64,000 nucleotides of DNA from Escherichia coli (lineage in GTDB: Bacteria > Pseudomonadota > Gammaproteobacteria > Enterobacterales > Enterobacteriaceae): the NCBI RefSeq assembly GCF_003019035.1, contig NZ_CP027447.1; one strand, given 5' to 3'. Within the stretch, counting starts at the first letter, position 1. Each line of letters begins with the position of its first letter. The notes below the pieces were generated by a model. That model did not search any database. It had not been told where the DNA came from and saw only the letters and a program-made list of their open reading frames with translations. Shown piece after piece: positions 24,206 through 32,450 of the stretch. The position numbers were made by a program, and so were the translations under genes.

Positions 24206-26314
24206 ATGTCAACCGGATTACGTTTCACGCTGGAAGTGGACGGCCTGCCACCGGACGCGTTTGCGGTGGTCTCCTTTCATCTGAACCAGTCACTCTCTTC
24301 GCTCTTTTCCCTCGATCTCTCTCTGGTCAGCCAGCAGTTTCTCTCCCTTGAATTTGCGCAGGTGCTGGACAAAATGGCCTACCTGACGGTATGGCAGGGC
24401 GATGACGTACAGCGCCGGGTGAAAGGTGTGGTGACCTGGTTTGAACTGGGGGAGAACGACAAAAACCAGATGCTGTACAGCATGAAGGTGTGCCCACCGC
24501 TGTGGCGCACAGGGCTGCGCCAGAACTTCCGTATCTTCCAGAATGAGGACATCGAAAGCATACTCGCGACGATCCTGAAAGAAAACGGGGTGACCGAGTG
24601 GAGTCCGCTGTTCAGCGAGCCGCATCCTTCCCGTGAGTTTTGTGTCCAGTACGGCGAAACCGATTACGATTTCCTGTGCCGGATGGCGGCGGAGGAAGGC
24701 ATCTTCTTTTATGAGGAGCACGCGCAAAAAAGTACCGACCAGAGCCTGGTCCTGTGCGACACCGTGCGTTATCTGCCGGAGTCCTTTGAGATCCCCTGGA
24801 ATCCGAACACCCGTACCGAGGTGAGCACCCTATGCATCAGCCAGTTCCTCTACAGCGCACAAATCCGCCCATCTTCCGTGGTGACCAAAGACTACACCTT
24901 TAAACGACCCGGCTGGGCAGGGCGTTTTGATCAGGAAGGCCAGCACCAGGATTACCAGCGCACACAGTATGAAGTGTATGACTACCCCGGACGTTTCAAG
25001 GGTGCCCACGGGCAGAACTTTGCCTGCTGGCAGATGGATGGCTGGCGAAACAACGCAGAAGTGGCGCGCGGAACAAGCCGTTCGCCGGAGATATGGCCGG
25101 GACGGCGAATTGCGCTGACGGGGCATCCGCAGGCGAACCTGAACCGGGAATGGCAGGTGGTGGCAAGTGAACTGCACGGCGAGCAGCCGCAGGCGGTGCC
25201 GGGACGCAGTGGTTCAGGTACCACGCTGAATAACCACTTTGCGGTAATACCGGCAGACAGAACATGGCGGCCACAGCCGTTGCTGAAACCGCTGGTGGAC
25301 GGCCCGCAGAGCGCCGTCGTGACGGGACCGGCAGGAGAAGAAATCTTCTGTGATGAACATGGCCGCGTGCGGGTGAAATTTAACTGGGACCGTTATAACC
25401 CGTCAAACCAGGACAGTTCATGCTGGATCCGTGTGGCACAGGCGTGGGCAGGCACCGGGTTTGGTAACCTGGCGATACCGCGTGTGGGTCAGGAGGTCAT
25501 TGTGGACTTCCTCAACGGCGATCCGGACCAGCCGATTATTATGGGGCGCACCTACCACCAGGAAAACCGCACCCCCGGCAGCCTGCCGGGAACAAAGACG
25601 CAAATGACCATTCGTTCAAAAACCTATAAGGGCAGCGGGTTTAATGAACTGAAGTTTGACGATGCGACAGGGAAAGAACAGGTCTACATCCACGCGCAGA
25701 AGAACATGAACACCGAGGTGCTGAATAACCGCACCACAGATGTGATAAACAACCATGCTGAGACCATCGGCAACAATCAGGTGATTGCGGTTACCAACAA
25801 TCAGATACAGACGGTGGGCGTTAACCAGATAGAGACGGTGGGCAGTAACCAGATCATTAAAGTGGGCTCTGTTCAGGTGGAAACGATTGGACTTGTTCGT
25901 GCGCTGACTGTGGGCGTGGCGTATCAGACGACGGTAGGTGGCATTATGAACACCTCGGTGGCCCTGATGCAGTCCTCGCAGATCGGTTTGCATAAATCGT
26001 TGATGGTCGGGCTGGGTTATGACGTCAAAGTCGGAAATAACGTTACCTTCACCGTTGGTAAAACGAAAAAGGATGATACCGGGCAGACCGCGATTTACTC
26101 CGCCGGTGAGCATCTGGAACTCTGCTGTGGTAAGGCAAGGCTGGTGCTGACTAAGGACGGACAAATTTTTCTCAACGGCACAAAAATTCATTTGCAGGGT
26201 AAGGAGCAGGTTAATGGTGACTCACTGTTGATTAACTGGAACTGTGCAGCCTCGAAATCCCCACCGAAGACCCCTGATGAAAAGCAGGATACGCCGGATA
26301 TGAGAGAGTACTGA
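24206..26314 (+). CDS. vgrG: T6SS spike protein VgrG (no C-terminal effector extension)
   Basis: 702-aa ORF, RBS ggagg; gp27/gp5-like region with repeated VxxNQ beta-helix motifs (NNQVIAVTNNQIQTVGVNQIETVGSNQIIKVGSVQ). Confidence 0.9.
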   Translation: MSTGLRFTLEVDGLPPDAFAVVSFHLNQSLSSLFSLDLSLVSQQFLSLEFAQVLDKMAYLTVWQGDDVQRRVKGVVTWFELGENDKNQMLYSMKVCPPLWRTGLRQNFRIFQNEDIESILATILKENGVTEWSPLFSEPHPSREFCVQYGETDYDFLCRMAAEEGIFFYEEHAQKSTDQSLVLCDTVRYLPESFEIPWNPNTRTEVSTLCISQFLYSAQIRPSSVVTKDYTFKRPGWAGRFDQEGQHQDYQRTQYEVYDYPGRFKGAHGQNFACWQMDGWRNNAEVARGTSRSPEIWPGRRIALTGHPQANLNREWQVVASELHGEQPQAVPGRSGSGTTLNNHFAVIPADRTWRPQPLLKPLVDGPQSAVVTGPAGEEIFCDEHGRVRVKFNWDRYNPSNQDSSCWIRVAQAWAGTGFGNLAIPRVGQEVIVDFLNGDPDQPIIMGRTYHQENRTPGSLPGTKTQMTIRSKTYKGSGFNELKFDDATGKEQVYIHAQKNMNTEVLNNRTTDVINNHAETIGNNQVIAVTNNQIQTVGVNQIETVGSNQIIKVGSVQVETIGLVRALTVGVAYQTTVGGIMNTSVALMQSSQIGLHKSLMVGLGYDVKVGNNVTFTVGKTKKDDTGQTAIYSAGEHLELCCGKARLVLTKDGQIFLNGTKIHLQGKEQVNGDSLLINWNCAASKSPPKTPDEKQDTPDMREY

Positions 26315-26380: not shown

Positions 26381-29300
26381 ATGAGCGGAAAACCGGCGGC
26401 GCGTCAGGGAGATATGACCCAGTATGGCGGTCCCATTGTCCAGGGTTCGGCAGGTGTAAGAATTGGCGCGCCCACCGGCGTGGCCTGTTCAGTGTGCCCG
26501 GGCGGAGTCACTTCCGGCAACCCGGTAAACCCGCTGCTGGGAGCGAAGGTGCTGCCCGGTGAGACGGATGTTGCGCTGCCCGGTCCGCTGCCGTTCATTC
26601 TCTCCCGCACCTACAGCAGCTACCGGACCCGGACGCCTGCACCGGTGGGCGTTTTCGGCCCCGGCTGGAAAGCGCCTTCTGATATCCGCTTACAGCTACG
26701 TGATGACGGACTGATACTCAACGACAACGGCGGGCGGAGCATTCACTTTGAGCCGCTGCTGCCGGGGGAGGCGGTGTACAGCCGCAGCGAGTCAATGTGG
26801 CTGGTGCGTGGCGGTAAGGCAACGCAGCCGGACGGCCACACGCTGGCACGGCTGTGGGCGTCGCTGCCGCCGGATATCCGGTTAAGCCCGCATCTTTACC
26901 TGGCGACCAACAGCGCACAGGGGCCGTGGTGGATACTCGGCTGGTCAGAGCGGGTGCCGGGTACTGAGGACGTACTGCCAGCGCCGCTGCCGCCGTACCG
27001 GGTGCTTACCGGGCTGGCGGACCGCTTCGGGCAGACGCTGACGTACCGGCGTGAGGCCGCCGGTGACCTGGCCGGGGAAATCACCGGCGTGACGGACGGT
27101 GCCGGGCGGAAGTTCCGTCTGGTGCTGACCACACAGGCGCAGCGGGCGGAAGAGGCCCGTAAACAGCACACCGCTTCCTTATCTTCCCCTGACACCCCCC
27201 GCCCTCTTTCAGACTCAGCTTTCCCCGACACACTGCCCGGTACGGAATACGGCCCCGACAGGGGTATCCGCCTTTCGGCGGTGTGGCTGATGCACGACCC
27301 GGCATACCCGGAAAGCCTGCCCGGTGCGCCACTGGCGCGGTACACGTATACGGAAGCCGGTGAACTGCTGGCGGTATATGACCGCAGCAATACGCAGGTG
27401 CGCGCTTTCACGTATGACGTGCAGCACCCGGGCCGGATGGTGGGGCACCGTTATGCGGGAAGGCCGGAGATGCGCTACCGCTACGACAATACCGGGCGGG
27501 TGGTGGAGCAGCTGAACCCGGCAGGGTTAAGCTATCGCTATCTTTATGAGCAGGACCGCATCACCATCACGGACAGCCTGAACCGGCGAGAGGTGCTGCA
27601 TACAGAAGGCGGGGCCGGGCTGAAGCGGGTGGTGAAAAAAGAACTGGCGGACGGCAGCGTCACGCACAGCGGGTATGACGCGGCAGGAAGGCTCACGGCA
27701 CAGACGGACGCGGCGGGACGGCAGACAGAGTACGGTCTGAATGTGGTGTCAGGCGATATCACGGACATCACCACGCCGGACGGGCGGGAGACGAAATTTT
27801 ACTATAACGACGGGAACCAGGTGACGGCAGTGGTGTCCCCGGACGGGCTGGAGAGCCGCCGGGCGTATGATGAGCGGGACAGGCTGGTAACGGAGACATC
27901 GCGCAGTGGGGACGTCATCCGGTATGCTTATGATAATCCGCACAGTGAATTACCGGCCACGACAACAGATGCGACGGGCAGCACCCGGCAGATGACCTGG
28001 AGCCGCTACGGGCAGTTGCTGGCGTTCACCGACTGCTCGGGCTACCAGACCCGCTATGAGTACGACCGCTTCGGCCAGATGACGGCGGTCCACCGCGAGG
28101 AAGGCATCAGCCTTTACCGCCGCTATGACAACCGTGGCCGGTTAACCTCGGTGAAAGACGCACAGGCCCGTGAAACGCAGTATGAGTACAACGCCGCAGG
28201 CGACCTGACTGCCGTTATCACCCCGGATGGCAACCGGAGTGAGACACAGTACGATGGGTGGGGAAAGGCCATCAGCACCACGCAGGGCGGGCTGACGCGC
28301 AGTATGGAGTACGATGCTGCCGGACGTATCACCACGCTGACTAACGAGAACGGCAGCCACAGCGACTTTAGTTACGATGCGCTGGACCGCCTGATACAGC
28401 AGGGCGGCTTTGACGGGCGGACGCAACGTTATCATTATGACCTGACCGGAAAACTCACGCAGAGTGAAGATGAGGGGCTTGTCATCCTCTGGTACTACGA
28501 TGAATCGGACCGTATTACTCACCGCACGGTAAACGGTGAACCGGCAGAACAGTGGCGGTATGACGGCCACGGCTGGCTGAGAGAAATCAGCCACCTGAGC
28601 GAAGGCCACCGTGTTGCCGTCCACTATGGCTATGATAATAAAGGCCGCCTGACCAGTGAGCGCCAGACGGTGCATCACCCGGAGACGGGAGAGCTGCTCT
28701 GGCAGCATGAGACCGGACATGCGTACAACGAACAGGGGCTGGCAAACCGCGTCACGCCGGACAGTCTGCCGCCGGTGGAGTGGCTGACCTATGGTAGCGG
28801 TTATCTGGCAGGCATGAAGCTGGGCGGGACGCCGCTGCTGGAGTTCACGCGCGACCGCCTGCACCGTGAGACGGTGCGCAGCTTCGGCAGCATGGCAGGC
28901 AGTAATGCCGCATACGAACTGACCAGCACATACACCCCTGCAGGCCAGTTACAGAGTCAGCACCTGAACAGCCTGGTGTATGACCGTGACTACGGGTGGA
29001 ATGACAACGGAGACCTGGTGCGCATCAGCGGCCCGCGACAGACGCGGGAATACGGCTACAGCGCCACGGGCAGGCTGGAGAGTGTGCGCACCCTCGCACC
29101 GGACCTGGACATCCGCATCCCGTATGCCACGGACCCGGCGGGCAACCGGCTGCCGGACCCGGAGCTGCACCCGGACAGTACACTCACAGTGTGGCCGGAT
29201 AACCGCATCGCGGAGGATGCGCACTATGTCTACCGCCACGATGAATACGGCAGGCTGACGGAGAAGACGGACCGCATCCCGGCGGGTGTGATACGGACGG

Positions 29301-29989
29301 ACGACGAGCGGACCCACCACTACCACTACGACAGCCAGCACCGCCTGGTGTTCTACACGCGGATACAGCATGGCGAGCCACTGGTCGAGAGCCGCTACGT
29401 CTACGACCCGCAGGGACGGCGAATGGCGAAACGGGTATGGCGGCGGGAGCGTGACCTGACGGGGTGGATGTCGCTGTCGCGTAAACCGGAGGTGACGTGG
29501 TACGGCTGGGACGGCGACCACCTGACGACGGTGCAGACCGACAGCACACGTATCCAGACGGTATACGAGCCGGGAAGCTTCACACCGCTCATCCGCATCG
29601 AAACAGACAACGGCGAGCGGGAGAAAACGCAGCGGCGGAGCCTGGCGGAGAAGCTCCAGCAGGAAGGGAGCGAGGACGGACACGGTGTGGTGTTCCCGGC
29701 TGAACTGGTGAGGATGCTGGACAGGCTGGAGGAAGAAATCCGGGCAGACCGCGTGAGCGGTGAAAGCCGGACGTGGCTTGCACAGTGCGGGCTGGCGGTG
29801 GAGCAACTGGAAAAACAGGTGGAGCCGGAATACACGCCGGAACGCACACTGCATCTTTACCACTGCGACCATCGGGGACTGCCGCTGGCGCTTATCAGCG
29901 AAGACGGCAATACGGTGTGGAGCGCGGAGTATGATGAATGGGGAAACCTGCTTAATGAGGAGAACCCGCATCATGTGTATCAGTCATAG
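26381..29989 (+). CDS. rhs: PAAR-like/Rhs-repeat protein core, terminated by an in-frame TAG at 29987-29989
   Basis: 1202-aa ORF; N-terminal AARQGD...[18 protein letters not shown] (prePAAR/PAAR-like), long run of YD/Rhs repeats ([32 protein letters not shown]), ends ...[10 protein letters not shown] then stop. Confidence 0.85.
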
Positions 29990-30598
29990 CGTCTGCCGGG
30001 GCAGCAGCATGATGAGGAGTCGGGGCTGTATTATAACCGGAACCGGTACTACAATCCGTTGCTGGGGAGGTATATTACCCAGGATCCAATTGGGCTGGAG
30101 GGGGGATGGAACCTGTATAATTACCCACTGAATCCGATAATAAGGATGGATCCTTTGGGTTTGTATAATTTATATCAATTATTATATGATGTTTGGCATG
30201 ATGATTCATATGGAACATCATCAATTGATATTACTGGCAGTGGAGATCTAATATCATTAGGTGGTCATGCAGGACTTGGCGTTGCGTTTGCTAAAAAGAA
30301 AGGTGAAATGTTATCTGATATTTGTATTTATGCTACAGCATGCGGACATGCAGGAATTGGTGGTGGGATAAATGCGGCTATCACATATTCTGAGACCAAG
30401 TCTTTACCTACATCGGGAGTCAGCAATTCAGTAGGTGTAACGGTTGGCGGCGGAGTTGGGGGGCATTTTGCGTATACTTATGTAGTGGATGTTGATAATC
30501 CAGAATCATCGACAGAATCTGTTGGTATCGGTGCAGGTGTTGACGCTTCAGTTATGACTCTGGCTTGTAGAACGTGGCAAGAATGCTGGGTCAATTAA
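29990..30598 (+). CDS. In-frame continuation of the Rhs gene after the TAG: end of conserved core (RLPGQQ...[10 protein letters not shown]...DPLGL) plus about 145-aa glycine-rich C-terminal toxin domain of unknown activity
   Basis: Same reading frame as 26381-29989 (both start at coordinate mod 3 = 2) with a single stop between; contains the Rhs core-end motif [44 protein letters not shown], then an AT-rich Gly-rich tail ([35 protein letters not shown]). Confidence 0.6.
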
Positions 30599-30609
30599 CA
30601 GGAGGAAAT

Positions 30610-31005
30610 ATGAAAGAATATATATTTTTAGTTTTATTTTTATTGTGTGGTTGTTCTCCAGTGGACATAGAGCCAGCTAGACAAGAAGTTAATATCTTTC
30701 GTGGTTTATATCAGACAGGAAAATACAGTGATATATATAAAATCACTTCAAGTGATTTTCAGACTGCCACATCTGAAAAAAAATTTATCGACATAATGAG
30801 CGAAGCAAAAGGAAAAGATCTTGGGACTTATAAAAAATCAACCCTTAAAACTGAAAAAATCACTCGCGGATTATTTTCAAACGATGAAATTACATTGATA
30901 TATTTCTCAGAATATTCAAAAAGAATTGTCCAAGAGGTTTTTGTGTTTAATGTTGAAGACAAAAAAGTAAAATTAAAAGGTTATAGGTATGATTCGATTA
31001 ATTAA
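30610..31005 (+). CDS. Small lipoprotein, putative cognate immunity protein for the Rhs C-terminal domain
   Basis: 131-aa ORF from ATG with RBS aggagg 5 bp upstream; signal peptide with cysteine (FLVLFLLCGCSP); AT-rich; starts 12 bp after the Rhs tip stop. Confidence 0.55.
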   Translation: MKEYIFLVLFLLCGCSPVDIEPARQEVNIFRGLYQTGKYSDIYKITSSDFQTATSEKKFIDIMSEAKGKDLGTYKKSTLKTEKITRGLFSNDEITLIYFSEYSKRIVQEVFVFNVEDKKVKLKGYRYDSIN

Positions 31006-31099
31006 ATTTTTTGATGATGACTTCAATTAGTAGAACATGTATTTTTCGATAAAAGCACCGATGACTTTTTCATGAAGTTCTACAGAGCGCGAGAAACAG

Positions 31100-32450
31100 A
31101 TGGTTCTGCGAGTCAGACGTTTGATTCAGGTTCTCAGGGGCAGATTCAGGGACAGGGAAAGATCATCAGAAGTTCACTTTTTGCACTAAATAATTCGCAT
31201 TTTATGTTTAAAAATTGAGATATTTCTCATTACCTGAAACTGTTTTTTTATTGCTTATACATGATCAAATACTCCTTACATAATTAAGGAGAACAAAATG
31301 GAACTTAAAAAATTGATGGAACATATTTCTGTTATCCCCGATTACAGACAAGCCTGGAAAGTGGAACATAAATTATCGGATATTCTACTGTTGACTATTT
31401 GTGCCGTTATTTCGGGTGCAGAAGGCTGGGAAGATATAGAGGATTTTGGGGAAACACATCTCGATTTTTTGAAGCAATATGGTGATTTTGATAATGGTAT
31501 TCCTGTTCACGATACCATTGCCAGAGTTGTATCCTGTATCAGTCCTGCAAAATTTCACGAGTGCTTTATTAACTGGATGCGTGACTGCCATTCTTCAGAT
31601 GATAAAGACGTCATCGCAATTGATGGAAAAACACTCCGGCATTCTTATGACAAGAGTCGCCGCAGGGGAGCGATTCATGTCATTAGTGCGTTCTCAACAA
31701 TGCACAGTCTGGTCATCGGACAGATCAGGACGGATGAGAAATCCAATGAGATTACAGCTATCCCTGAACTTCTTAACATGGTGGATATTAAAGGAAAAAT
31801 CATCACAACTGATGCGATGGGTTGCCAGAAAGATATAGCAGAGAAGATACAAAAACAGGGCGGTGATTATTTATTCGCTGTAAAAGGAAATCAGGGTCGG
31901 CTAAATAAAGCCTTTGAGGAAAAATTCCCACTGAAAGAATTAAATAATCCAGAACATGACAGTTACGCAATTAGTGAAAAGAGTCACGGCAGAGAAGAAA
32001 TCCGTCTTCACATTGTTTGCGATGTCCCTGATGAACTTATTGATTTCACGTTTGAATGGAAAGGTCTGAAGAAATTATGCGTGGCAGTCTCCTTTCGGTC
32101 AATAATAGCAGAACAAAAGAAAGAGCCCGAAATGACGGTCAGATATTATATCAGTTCTGCTGATTTAACCGCAGAGAAGTTCGCCACAGCAATCCGAAAC
32201 CACTGGCACGTGGAGAATAAGCTGCACTGGCGTCTGGACGTGGTAATGAATGAAGACGACTGCAAAATAAGAAGAGGAAATGCAGCAGAATTATTTTCAG
32301 GGATACGGCACATCGCTATTAATATTTTAACGAATGATAAGGTATTCAAGGCAGGGTTAAGACGTAAGATGCGAAAAGCAGCCATGGACAGAAACTACCT
32401 GGCGTCAGTCCTTGCGGGGAGCGGGCTTTCGTAATCTTGCCCTGACCCGT
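31100..32450 (+). mobile_element. H-repeat / ISAs1-family insertion sequence at the distal end of the Rhs element (boundaries approximate)
   Basis: Contains the 378-aa H-repeat-associated transposase ORF; exact inverted-repeat ends not resolved by eye. Confidence 0.45.
31298..32434 (+). CDS. ISAs1-family transposase (H-repeat-associated protein)
   Basis: 378-aa ORF, RBS aaggag; DDE-type transposase typically found 3' of rhs genes in E. coli. Confidence 0.8.

Follow-up and report, generated by a model that had tools for sequence, protein, structure and literature searches.

A recent survey predicts that Rhs effectors act almost exclusively in the cytoplasm. The C-terminal domain of Tse5 from Pseudomonas aeruginosa (Tse5-CT) depolarizes the inner membrane (PMC10684867), and Rhs cages can therefore carry membrane-targeting toxins. 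Tse4 and the Ntox25 ionophores of CdiA C-termini have been modelled by AlphaFold as small ‘tapered beta-barrels’, not helical glycine zippers (PMC11630599). Ssp6 of Serratia marcescens is a periplasm-acting, cation-selective pore-forming type VI secretion system (T6SS) toxin, and its outer-membrane partner Sip6 is proposed to sequester it (PMC6889166). The virulence-associated Vap proteins of Rhodococcus equi also adopt a barrel. VapD has eight strands in the unique order 1-2-3-8-5-6-7-4. Its barrel is kinked at glycines, its last strand is glycine-rich, and lipid or detergent is bound at a ‘bald spot’ of glycine (PMC4118825). VapA collapses proton gradients by membrane permeabilization (PMC10100859). 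Here we describe the 3′ end of an Rhs element within a stretch of 64,000 nt of Escherichia coli DNA (contig NZ_CP027447.1; the whole stretch is called the window below). It encodes a glycine-rich C-terminal domain, the tip, followed directly by the gene of a small lipoprotein.

Comparison of sequences gives good support to the tip and the lipoprotein as a polymorphic toxin/immunity pair. That the toxin acts in the periplasm, and that the lipoprotein confers immunity to it, is very probable. The explanation that best accounts for the whole, a periplasmic Vap-like permeabilizing barrel with a lipoprotein antidote, truncated in this genome by an amber codon, has in our estimate an even chance of being correct. 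The elements of the cassette are the following:

29990–30163, + strand: final 58 codons of the Rhs core (plug of the C-terminus and aspartyl autoprotease, QDPIGL...DPLGL), in frame 3′ of the amber stop codon (matches to RHS_core and TIGR03696)
30164–30598, + strand: glycine-rich presumed toxin tip, 144 amino acids (aa) plus stop codon; predicted Vap-like barrel (translation, composition, family search and model)
30600–30605, + strand: Shine–Dalgarno sequence AGGAGG of the lipoprotein gene (read from the sequence)
30610–31005, + strand: lipoprotein, 131 aa (named ‘RHS element protein dsORF-e4’ by NCBI), presumed immunity protein (lipobox, and pairing with tip homologues)

The border between core and tip is sharp. 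The core ends as QDPIGL...RMDPLGL/YNLY, where the stroke marks the boundary, in a region that matches Rhs_assc_core (TIGR03696). DPLGL ends at 30163, the tip is encoded by 30164–30595 and its stop codon TAA lies at 30596–30598. The GC fraction falls from 0.60–0.66 in the Rhs core to 0.39–0.45 in the tip and to 0.28–0.31 in the lipoprotein gene. At the boundary of core and tip the drop is from 0.65 to 0.39. The tip stop codon is separated by 11 nt from the ATG of the lipoprotein at 30610, and the gap contains the Shine–Dalgarno sequence. A first-pass annotation, made from the letters alone, had placed here a glycine-rich tip of roughly 145 aa after DPLGL, with CRTWQECW at its C-terminus, and a 131-aa protein with a lipoprotein-type signal, and had taken the abrupt change of composition and the tight spacing as typical of a toxin/immunity cassette. 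Its coordinates, the glycine richness and the C-terminal sequence prove exact, the composition and spacing are as described, and the observation itself is confirmed.

The pairing is drawn from co-variation, since a homologous lipoprotein follows tip homologues at 33–46% identity. Tip homologues P0098 (46% identity), P0102 (33%) and P0103 (34%) each come after a DPxGL motif and are followed by a lipoprotein of 124–152 aa, at a distance of about 80 nt or less (P0102, P0098 and P0103; loci L004, L006/L007 and L008). The partners of these three homologues have canonical lipoboxes (LSGC, VCAC and LLGC) and share with the window lipoprotein the signature F..Y....Y..IY ... L.YxSEYSK..V.E.F.F ... KL.GY.Y. 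One of them also matches DUF4019, to which the window protein has a weak match. In Kluyvera intermedia an intact lipoprotein stands next to recognizable tip debris (LIQLPGQQYDQETG...). The idea of a polymorphic toxin/immunity cassette, put forward in the first-pass annotation, is borne out by these neighbourhoods. The most divergent tip, P0107 (L005, 713–1258), has as its next gene that of a 181-aa protein with two hydrophobic helices, followed by a PAAR gene; the 181-aa protein may be an alternative, membrane-embedded type of immunity protein for the same toxin fold. The neighbourhood comparison covered the homologues with a contig on record, which P0106 does not have.

Two of these loci have further features. 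The Kluyvera locus (L003; 1203–2261 and 2522–2950) comprises an Rhs end, a Sel1/TPR-like repeat protein that is presumably the immunity protein of that Rhs end, the frameshifted tip debris and the intact lipoprotein. Decay beside an intact immunity gene is the usual fate of orphan modules. A metagenomic contig (L006, 221–655 and 1509–1799; L007, 693–1064) carries, besides the one after the tip, a second and divergent lipoprotein of the same family (144 aa, lipobox LIGC) 5′ of the Rhs end; this may represent an orphan immunity gene array. The downstream copy is shorter in L006 than in L007.

The N-terminus of the window lipoprotein reads MKEYIFLVLFLLCGC/SP. The signal peptide, MKEYIFLVLFLLCG-C15-S, has the lipobox L-C-G-C15, with serine and not aspartate at position +2. 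The lipobox cysteine C15 is kept in 20 of the 21 lipoprotein homologues, and the distant homologues have canonical lipoboxes (LSGC, LLGC, LIGC and VCAC). Under the Asp+2 retention rule, lipoproteins without aspartate at +2 go to the outer membrane. The serine thus predicts Lol sorting of the protein to an outer-membrane anchor, facing the periplasm. The structure of the lipoprotein is predicted to be an NTF2-like alpha+beta cone, that is an NTF2/cystatin-like fold. An in-frame GTG further upstream would lengthen the protein by 12 residues (30574–30609), and the database has some homologues with extensions of this sort (140 aa). The start is more plausibly the ATG at 30610, which AGGAGG precedes.

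The tip contains 23 glycines in 144 residues (16%) and four cysteines, and is acidic with a pI of 4.5. Searched as a single sequence and as a profile it has no match in Pfam (for Ntox25 even at E ≤ 10), NCBIfam, PADLOC or the sequences of the PDB. Eleven members of the tip family searched individually in Pfam likewise gave no match, and none to Ntox25 or glycine-zipper models (E ≤ 0.1). A Pfam search with the tip and the end of the core together also found nothing for the tip. The earlier statement that no motif can be recognized in the tip therefore stands; neither a family model nor a paper was found for it, in keeping with its description as uncharacterized. An exhaustive hidden Markov model search of 1.84 billion cluster representatives returned 21 proteins of the family. 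The close relatives are Rhs ends or fragments of Escherichia, Citrobacter and Enterobacter, while six of the 21 are divergent (30–46% identity), three of these being visibly fused to the Rhs DPxGL boundary. An alignment of 11 sequences was used for modelling. Seven residues are invariant in the family (D52, Y56, G64, G91, G96, D109 and S119), and N112-P113 is nearly so. A helical glycine-zipper pore was considered and dropped, given a domain predicted to be all-beta, a low hydropathy with no hydrophobic segment that could span the membrane as a helix, and the lack of any match to glycine-zipper models in Pfam.

The invariant polar residues D52, Y56, D109 and S119, with the nearly invariant N112-P113, could belong to an enzyme that acts in the periplasm, either a peptidoglycan or lipid hydrolase or a modifier of lipid II or lipopolysaccharide, whose active site the lipoprotein blocks. 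The predicted periplasmic location of the immunity protein agrees with this, and the majority of T6SS effectors known to act in the periplasm are enzymes that target the cell wall or lipids. On the other side, the searches of Pfam, NCBIfam, PADLOC and PDB sequences found neither a catalytic motif nor homology to a hydrolase family. None of the three ‘GH’ motifs has a conserved histidine: P0106 and P0107 have another residue in place of H62, and H35 and H101 are variable. This argues against a histidine-based active site. The best structural neighbours are non-enzymatic barrels, and the high content of glycine (16%), with many invariant positions, suggests by analogy with Vap that glycine serves the structure or the surface. 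Taken together these points make an enzyme unlikely, and a non-enzymatic barrel is preferred.

The AlphaFold2 model of the tip has a mean predicted local distance difference test (pLDDT) score of 75 and a predicted template modelling (pTM) score of 0.64, and is all-beta apart from a short N-terminal helix. The models of identical E. coli proteins in AFDB superpose on it with template modelling scores of 0.91–0.95; the prediction is thus reproducible. The predicted fold is an eight-stranded Vap-like beta-barrel, and its closest structural neighbours are the non-enzymatic Vap barrels. An internal duplication such as would correspond to the pseudo-twofold symmetry of Vap is not detectable in the tip sequence. 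In a Foldseek search of AFDB50, numerous other Rhs/YD-shell proteins were found to end in this fold, at 18–28% identity. Neighbours in that search come from Hafnia (51%), Buttiauxella, Salmonella bongori, Diaphorobacter, Yokenella, Neisseria elongata and Treponema, and include the C-terminus of one CdiA/FhaB-like exoprotein. The occurrence of the fold at so many Rhs C-termini suggests that the barrel is a recurrent but unnamed polymorphic-toxin warhead. Remote homology and structure prediction had been proposed at first pass as checks on both proteins, with a clear match to a non-toxin family as the adverse outcome. For the tip sequence they gave no family match in Pfam, NCBIfam, PDB or in alignments to Tse4 and Vap profiles, and the predicted structures are an all-beta Vap-like tip and an NTF2-like lipoprotein.

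Barrels also serve to bind ligands, as in avidin, lipocalins and protease inhibitors. The tip, soluble-looking and weakly hydrophobic, might bind or inhibit with high affinity some protein or ligand of the periplasm or outer membrane, and so poison an essential envelope machine instead of the bilayer. The authors of the VapD structure also weighed an inhibitor role (PMC4118825). The analysis gave no evidence for a ligand pocket, and the pairing of P0107 with a protein of two transmembrane helices is a better fit to a membrane site, so that we regard a binder as improbable. On a Vap-like topology the cysteines of the tip offer a separate clue.

The Enterobacter fragment P0016 lacks C54 and C141 and keeps C60 and C135, while P0107 lacks C60 and C135 and keeps C54 and C141. 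The cysteines thus appear to be lost in pairs. The positions within the two pairs have equal sums (54 + 141 = 60 + 135 = 195), which is the register of two antiparallel neighbouring strands. This is suggestive of strand 3 (52–63) lying beside strand 8 (130–142), as in Vap and unlike a meander barrel; the strand pairing was drawn from the cysteine register and the two informative sequences. Two putative disulfide bonds, C54–C141 and C60–C135, would in turn indicate folding in an oxidizing compartment, i.e. the periplasm.

The case for a periplasmic or envelope site of action is strong. It is drawn from the conserved lipobox, the four cysteines with their apparent loss in pairs, the two-transmembrane-helix neighbour of P0107 and a predicted fold closest to membrane-active Vap proteins, and it agrees with the proposal of the first-pass annotation that the toxin acts on the envelope. 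Most Rhs tips act in the cytoplasm, as nucleases, deaminases or ADP-ribosyltransferases. Were this one to do so the lipoprotein would be an unrelated passenger. Yet there is no open reading frame (ORF) for a cytoplasmic immunity protein between the tip and the lipoprotein or after the tip in the window, changes in the lipoprotein accompany those in the tip across homologues at 33–46% identity, the cysteines of the tip, four in number, show conservation with apparent loss in pairs, and the Pfam searches found no enzyme motif. A cytoplasmic toxin is consequently very improbable. Permeabilization of the membrane is the activity suggested by analogy of fold, with a chance that comes close to even.

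The proposed course of events is as follows. In intact copies the YD-repeat cage of the PAAR-Rhs protein would enclose the unfolded tip, and the aspartyl autoprotease of Rhs would free it by cleavage after DPLGL. By analogy with Tse5 (PMC10684867) the tip would then be fired on VgrG into the periplasm of a neighbouring cell. There it would be oxidized and adopt a Vap-like barrel of eight strands whose surface is rich in glycine, the two disulfides stapling strands 3 and 8. The folded tip may bind and permeabilize the cytoplasmic membrane, so that the proton-motive force collapses. Sister cells would be protected by the co-transcribed NTF2-like lipoprotein on the periplasmic face of the outer membrane, which would catch the incoming tip before it reached the inner membrane, with the same logic as proposed for Sip6 and Ssp6 (PMC6889166). 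In this genome the toxin would be neither produced nor delivered, and the intact lipoprotein would still guard against neighbours that fire the same toxin.

A number of points weigh against this scheme. There is no link at the level of sequence between the tip and any membrane-active toxin. Comparison of profiles by hhalign gave a probability of 0.3% for the tip family against an 18-member alignment of Tse4, which had been recovered through the mass-spectrometry peptides in PMC12169545 and combined with 17 homologues, and of 0.2% against the six Vap proteins encoded by the vap genes of pVAPA1037. With neither profile similarity nor a Pfam match the tip is no demonstrable member of these families, and any kinship lies at the level of predicted fold only. 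That fold comes from a moderate-confidence prediction made with a shallow alignment (11 sequences). The tip lacks a strongly hydrophobic stretch, its highest Kyte–Doolittle mean over 19 residues being 1.06. The paired loss of cysteines is read from two sequences, one of which is a fragment, and a third fragment (P0104) lacks C60 only. The known depolarizing toxins of beta type or rich in glycine have membrane-embedded immunity proteins, not soluble lipoproteins. In the case of Tse4 the gene directly 5′ of tse4, which we take to encode Tsi4, encodes a 145-aa protein with two transmembrane helices, as against the NTF2-like lipoprotein beside the tip. Lastly, the amber codon could be a sequencing error, and the toxin would then be expressed.

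A more far-reaching proposal is that the tip is the founding member of a class of Vap-fold antibacterial toxins, a disulfide-stapled warhead of T6SS/Rhs (and possibly contact-dependent inhibition, CDI) systems that collapses the proton gradient without a classical pore. We put this forward tentatively, as the less likely outcome. If it is true, the lipoprotein is the first natural protein inhibitor of the Vap fold, which is otherwise known only from R. equi virulence proteins, and E. coli would provide a system for working out how barrels of Vap type permeabilize membranes.

The reading frame of the rhs gene is interrupted in the window. An in-frame TAG at 29987–29989 (HHVYQS-stop-RLPGQQ) ends the 1202-aa core ORF 59 codons 5′ of the cleavage site. 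The RHS_core model (1261 positions) is matched at 1–1202 before the stop codon and at 1204–1261 after it. A single uninterrupted frame from core to tip, absent in the window, is intact in strain SC423, and the closest genome, SCU-301, has TAC (tyrosine) at the same codon, which is the sole difference over 1,201 bases. A C-to-G change at 29989 turns TAC into TAG. The 81 bases around the TAG have no exact match among 5,426 complete E. coli genomes. The amber codon is thus a lesion of one base that is private to this genome, and reflects recent decay or else an error in sequencing. Lying before the plug, it would cause loss of the C-terminal plug, of QDPIGL and DPLGL, the two motifs that hold the aspartates of the autoprotease, and of the tip. 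The counterparts of these aspartates in Tse5, D1141 and D1164, have been mutated, and D1141A ended stable pore formation and killing in competition (PMC10684867).

Because of the in-frame TAG the toxin is most likely not translated with Rhs, while the lipoprotein gene is intact, and we consider it probable that the toxin is inactive in this genome. The locus would then be a dead remnant, in which rhs is a pseudogene, the tip is untranslated and only the lipoprotein matters, as retained immunity. We think this description of the strain the likelier one; it concerns the status of one genome and is compatible with any mechanism of the toxin. The loss of the catalytic aspartates, the plug and the tip speaks for it, as do the broken rhs, vgrG and tssH of the closest relative SCU-301 and the decayed or orphan tips known beside intact lipoproteins elsewhere, as in Kluyvera. 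Against it, the lesion is one base change in a frame that is otherwise open, its sequence context occurs in 0 of the 5,426 genomes, so that a sequencing error or a mutation of very recent date may underlie it, and the T6SS genes and vgrG of the window look intact. Moreover, readthrough in E. coli is comparatively frequent at a UAG that has C as the next base. The description ‘Rhs C-terminal domain’ given at first pass is therefore right in that the tip is in frame after DPLGL; it does not hold in that the amber codon cuts the tip from the core and leaves what is most likely an unexpressed pseudogene remnant. The earlier interpretation as a whole is partly supported. The interest of the locus is moderated by the reliance of all functional statements on prediction and by the broken state of the window copy. 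For this genome the picture would be that of a weapon disarmed by one base change and a shield retained. The near-identical SCU-301 has tssH, vgrG and rhs annotated as frameshifted, unlike the intact-looking T6SS-1 genes and vgrG of the window, and related strains seem to be losing the T6SS weapon through different lesions.

The region is the 3′ end of an E. coli Rhs element linked to T6SS-1 (hcp-vgrG-rhs). The order of genes in the window is the T6SS-1 set, hcp, vgrG, rhs, the small lipoprotein gene, an insertion sequence 1 (IS1) remnant, ISAs1, yafV, ivy and fadE. The T6SS-1 set, at about 1463–23996, looks intact (the tssH ORF has 957 aa and that of tssM 1174 aa). Linkage to vgrG and T6SS genes, as in a PAAR-Rhs polymorphic toxin, is present. 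The features that flank the cassette are:

24206–26314, + strand: vgrG (702 aa), the T6SS spike protein, directly 5′ of rhs (ORF; NCBIfam TIGR03361 VI_Rhs_Vgr, 626 bits)
26381–29989, + strand: Rhs core ORF (1202 aa), with its premature amber end (NCBIfam RHS_core NF041261, 2591 bits at a cut-off of 2000; also a YD_repeat_2x match)
31027–31125, − strand: IS1 transposase remnant, 99 bp, travelling with the cassette (annotation at the equivalent position in SCU-301 and SC423)
31298–32434, + strand: intact transposase of the ISAs1 family (ISEc1, ‘H-repeat’) (NCBIfam transpos_ISAs1, 414 bits; annotation)

The annotation of the IS1 remnant was transferred with window coordinates equal to locus coordinates + 22899. 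Rhs elements of E. coli usually have an ISAs1/H-repeat transposase on their 3′ side.

The cassette is not rare. A 1.2-kb segment was found at a coverage of at least 80% in 1,317 of the 5,426 complete E. coli genomes (about 24%), mostly at ~98% identity. Together with the NCBI name of the small gene this identifies the cassette as the widespread ‘e4’ tip of the rhsE-type element. Most E. coli genomes appear to have it at the yncH-rhsE locus. This is so in SC423, the strain inspected, where it lies between yncG and yncH and is preceded by an intact vgrG and a 1,402-aa Rhs protein. The window and SCU-301 have this module, IS1 remnant and H-repeat element included, at the aspV/T6SS-1-yafV locus. 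Where other strains have the cassette at rhsE the same IS1 remnant comes after it, and its presence across loci suggests that the core end, tip, lipoprotein and insertion sequence debris move or recombine as one block. Further downstream, the SC423 locus (L002) has another rhs core, whose tip is different, and a ‘dsORF-h1’ gene. A match to the ‘YdcD family’, P0027, was discarded as a garbled chimera. What is already known is the sequence of the cassette (in thousands of genomes), its NCBI name and the textbook Rhs architecture; a literature search (RhsE/ydcD, dsORF, Rhs with VapD) found no paper that gives the tip or the lipoprotein a function. What is new is the toxin-domain family itself, as yet unmodelled and predicted to be Vap-like, disulfide-stapled and periplasm-acting. 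Given its presence in roughly one in four complete E. coli genomes, the cassette probably influences how E. coli of the gut compete.

In its overall plan the locus resembles the RhsA–E elements of E. coli K-12. The core is rich in GC and ends at a DPxGL boundary, the tip is AT-rich, and a small ‘dsORF’ follows, with H-repeat/ISAs1 and IS1 debris. The tip of K-12 rhsE and ydcD are, in contrast, unrelated to the tip and lipoprotein of the window, and identity with the K-12 RhsE tip and YdcD was accordingly rejected.

Tse5 (PA2684) is a counterpart in delivery architecture. Like the intact element it has an N-terminus of PAAR-like type and an Rhs cage, cuts itself at DPxGL by aspartyl autoproteolysis and releases a glycine-rich tip of ~15–16 kDa into the target periplasm. 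Its tip is described as an integral-membrane glycine-zipper toxin, and this description sets it apart from a domain predicted to be all-beta and weakly hydrophobic, with putative disulfide cysteines and a soluble lipoprotein partner. Tse4 (PA2774) and the Ntox25 (PF15530) CdiA-CT ionophores share with the tip a small size and a similar composition, theirs being rich in glycine, alanine and serine; they are delivered by T6SS or CDI to the periplasm, where they dissipate the membrane potential. Tse4 is borne by Hcp, whereas the window domain is an Rhs tip, and Tse4 is not among the 50 best structural neighbours of the tip in AFDB. The Ssp6–Sip6 pair resembles that of the window in having an outer-membrane immunity protein, a location predicted for the lipoprotein by the serine at +2. 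Ssp6 differs in being a stand-alone effector of a mainly helical family, and Sip6 is a 67-aa protein with two predicted transmembrane helices and not a lipoprotein.

The predicted fold is most like that of VapA, VapB, VapD and VapG of Rhodococcus (Prescottella) equi (Pfam R_equi_Vir; PDB 4cv7 and 5aeo), which have an eight-stranded barrel of ~110 residues, conserved glycines and a glycine-rich last strand. The Vap strand order, with strand 3 next to strand 8, fits the cysteine register of the tip. Vap proteins are virulence factors of actinobacteria, secreted through Sec, whose site of action is the host phagolysosome; they have neither disulfides nor an immunity protein. The tip, unlike Vap, is a presumed antibacterial domain delivered by T6SS/Rhs, with four cysteines, a dedicated lipoprotein and no match to R_equi_Vir in sequence. 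If the proposal is correct, a non-enzymatic, periplasm-acting beta-barrel tip with a lipoprotein antidote joins the very short list that is headed by Tse5, and the predicted link to the Vap proteins could illuminate how VapA makes membranes leaky to protons.

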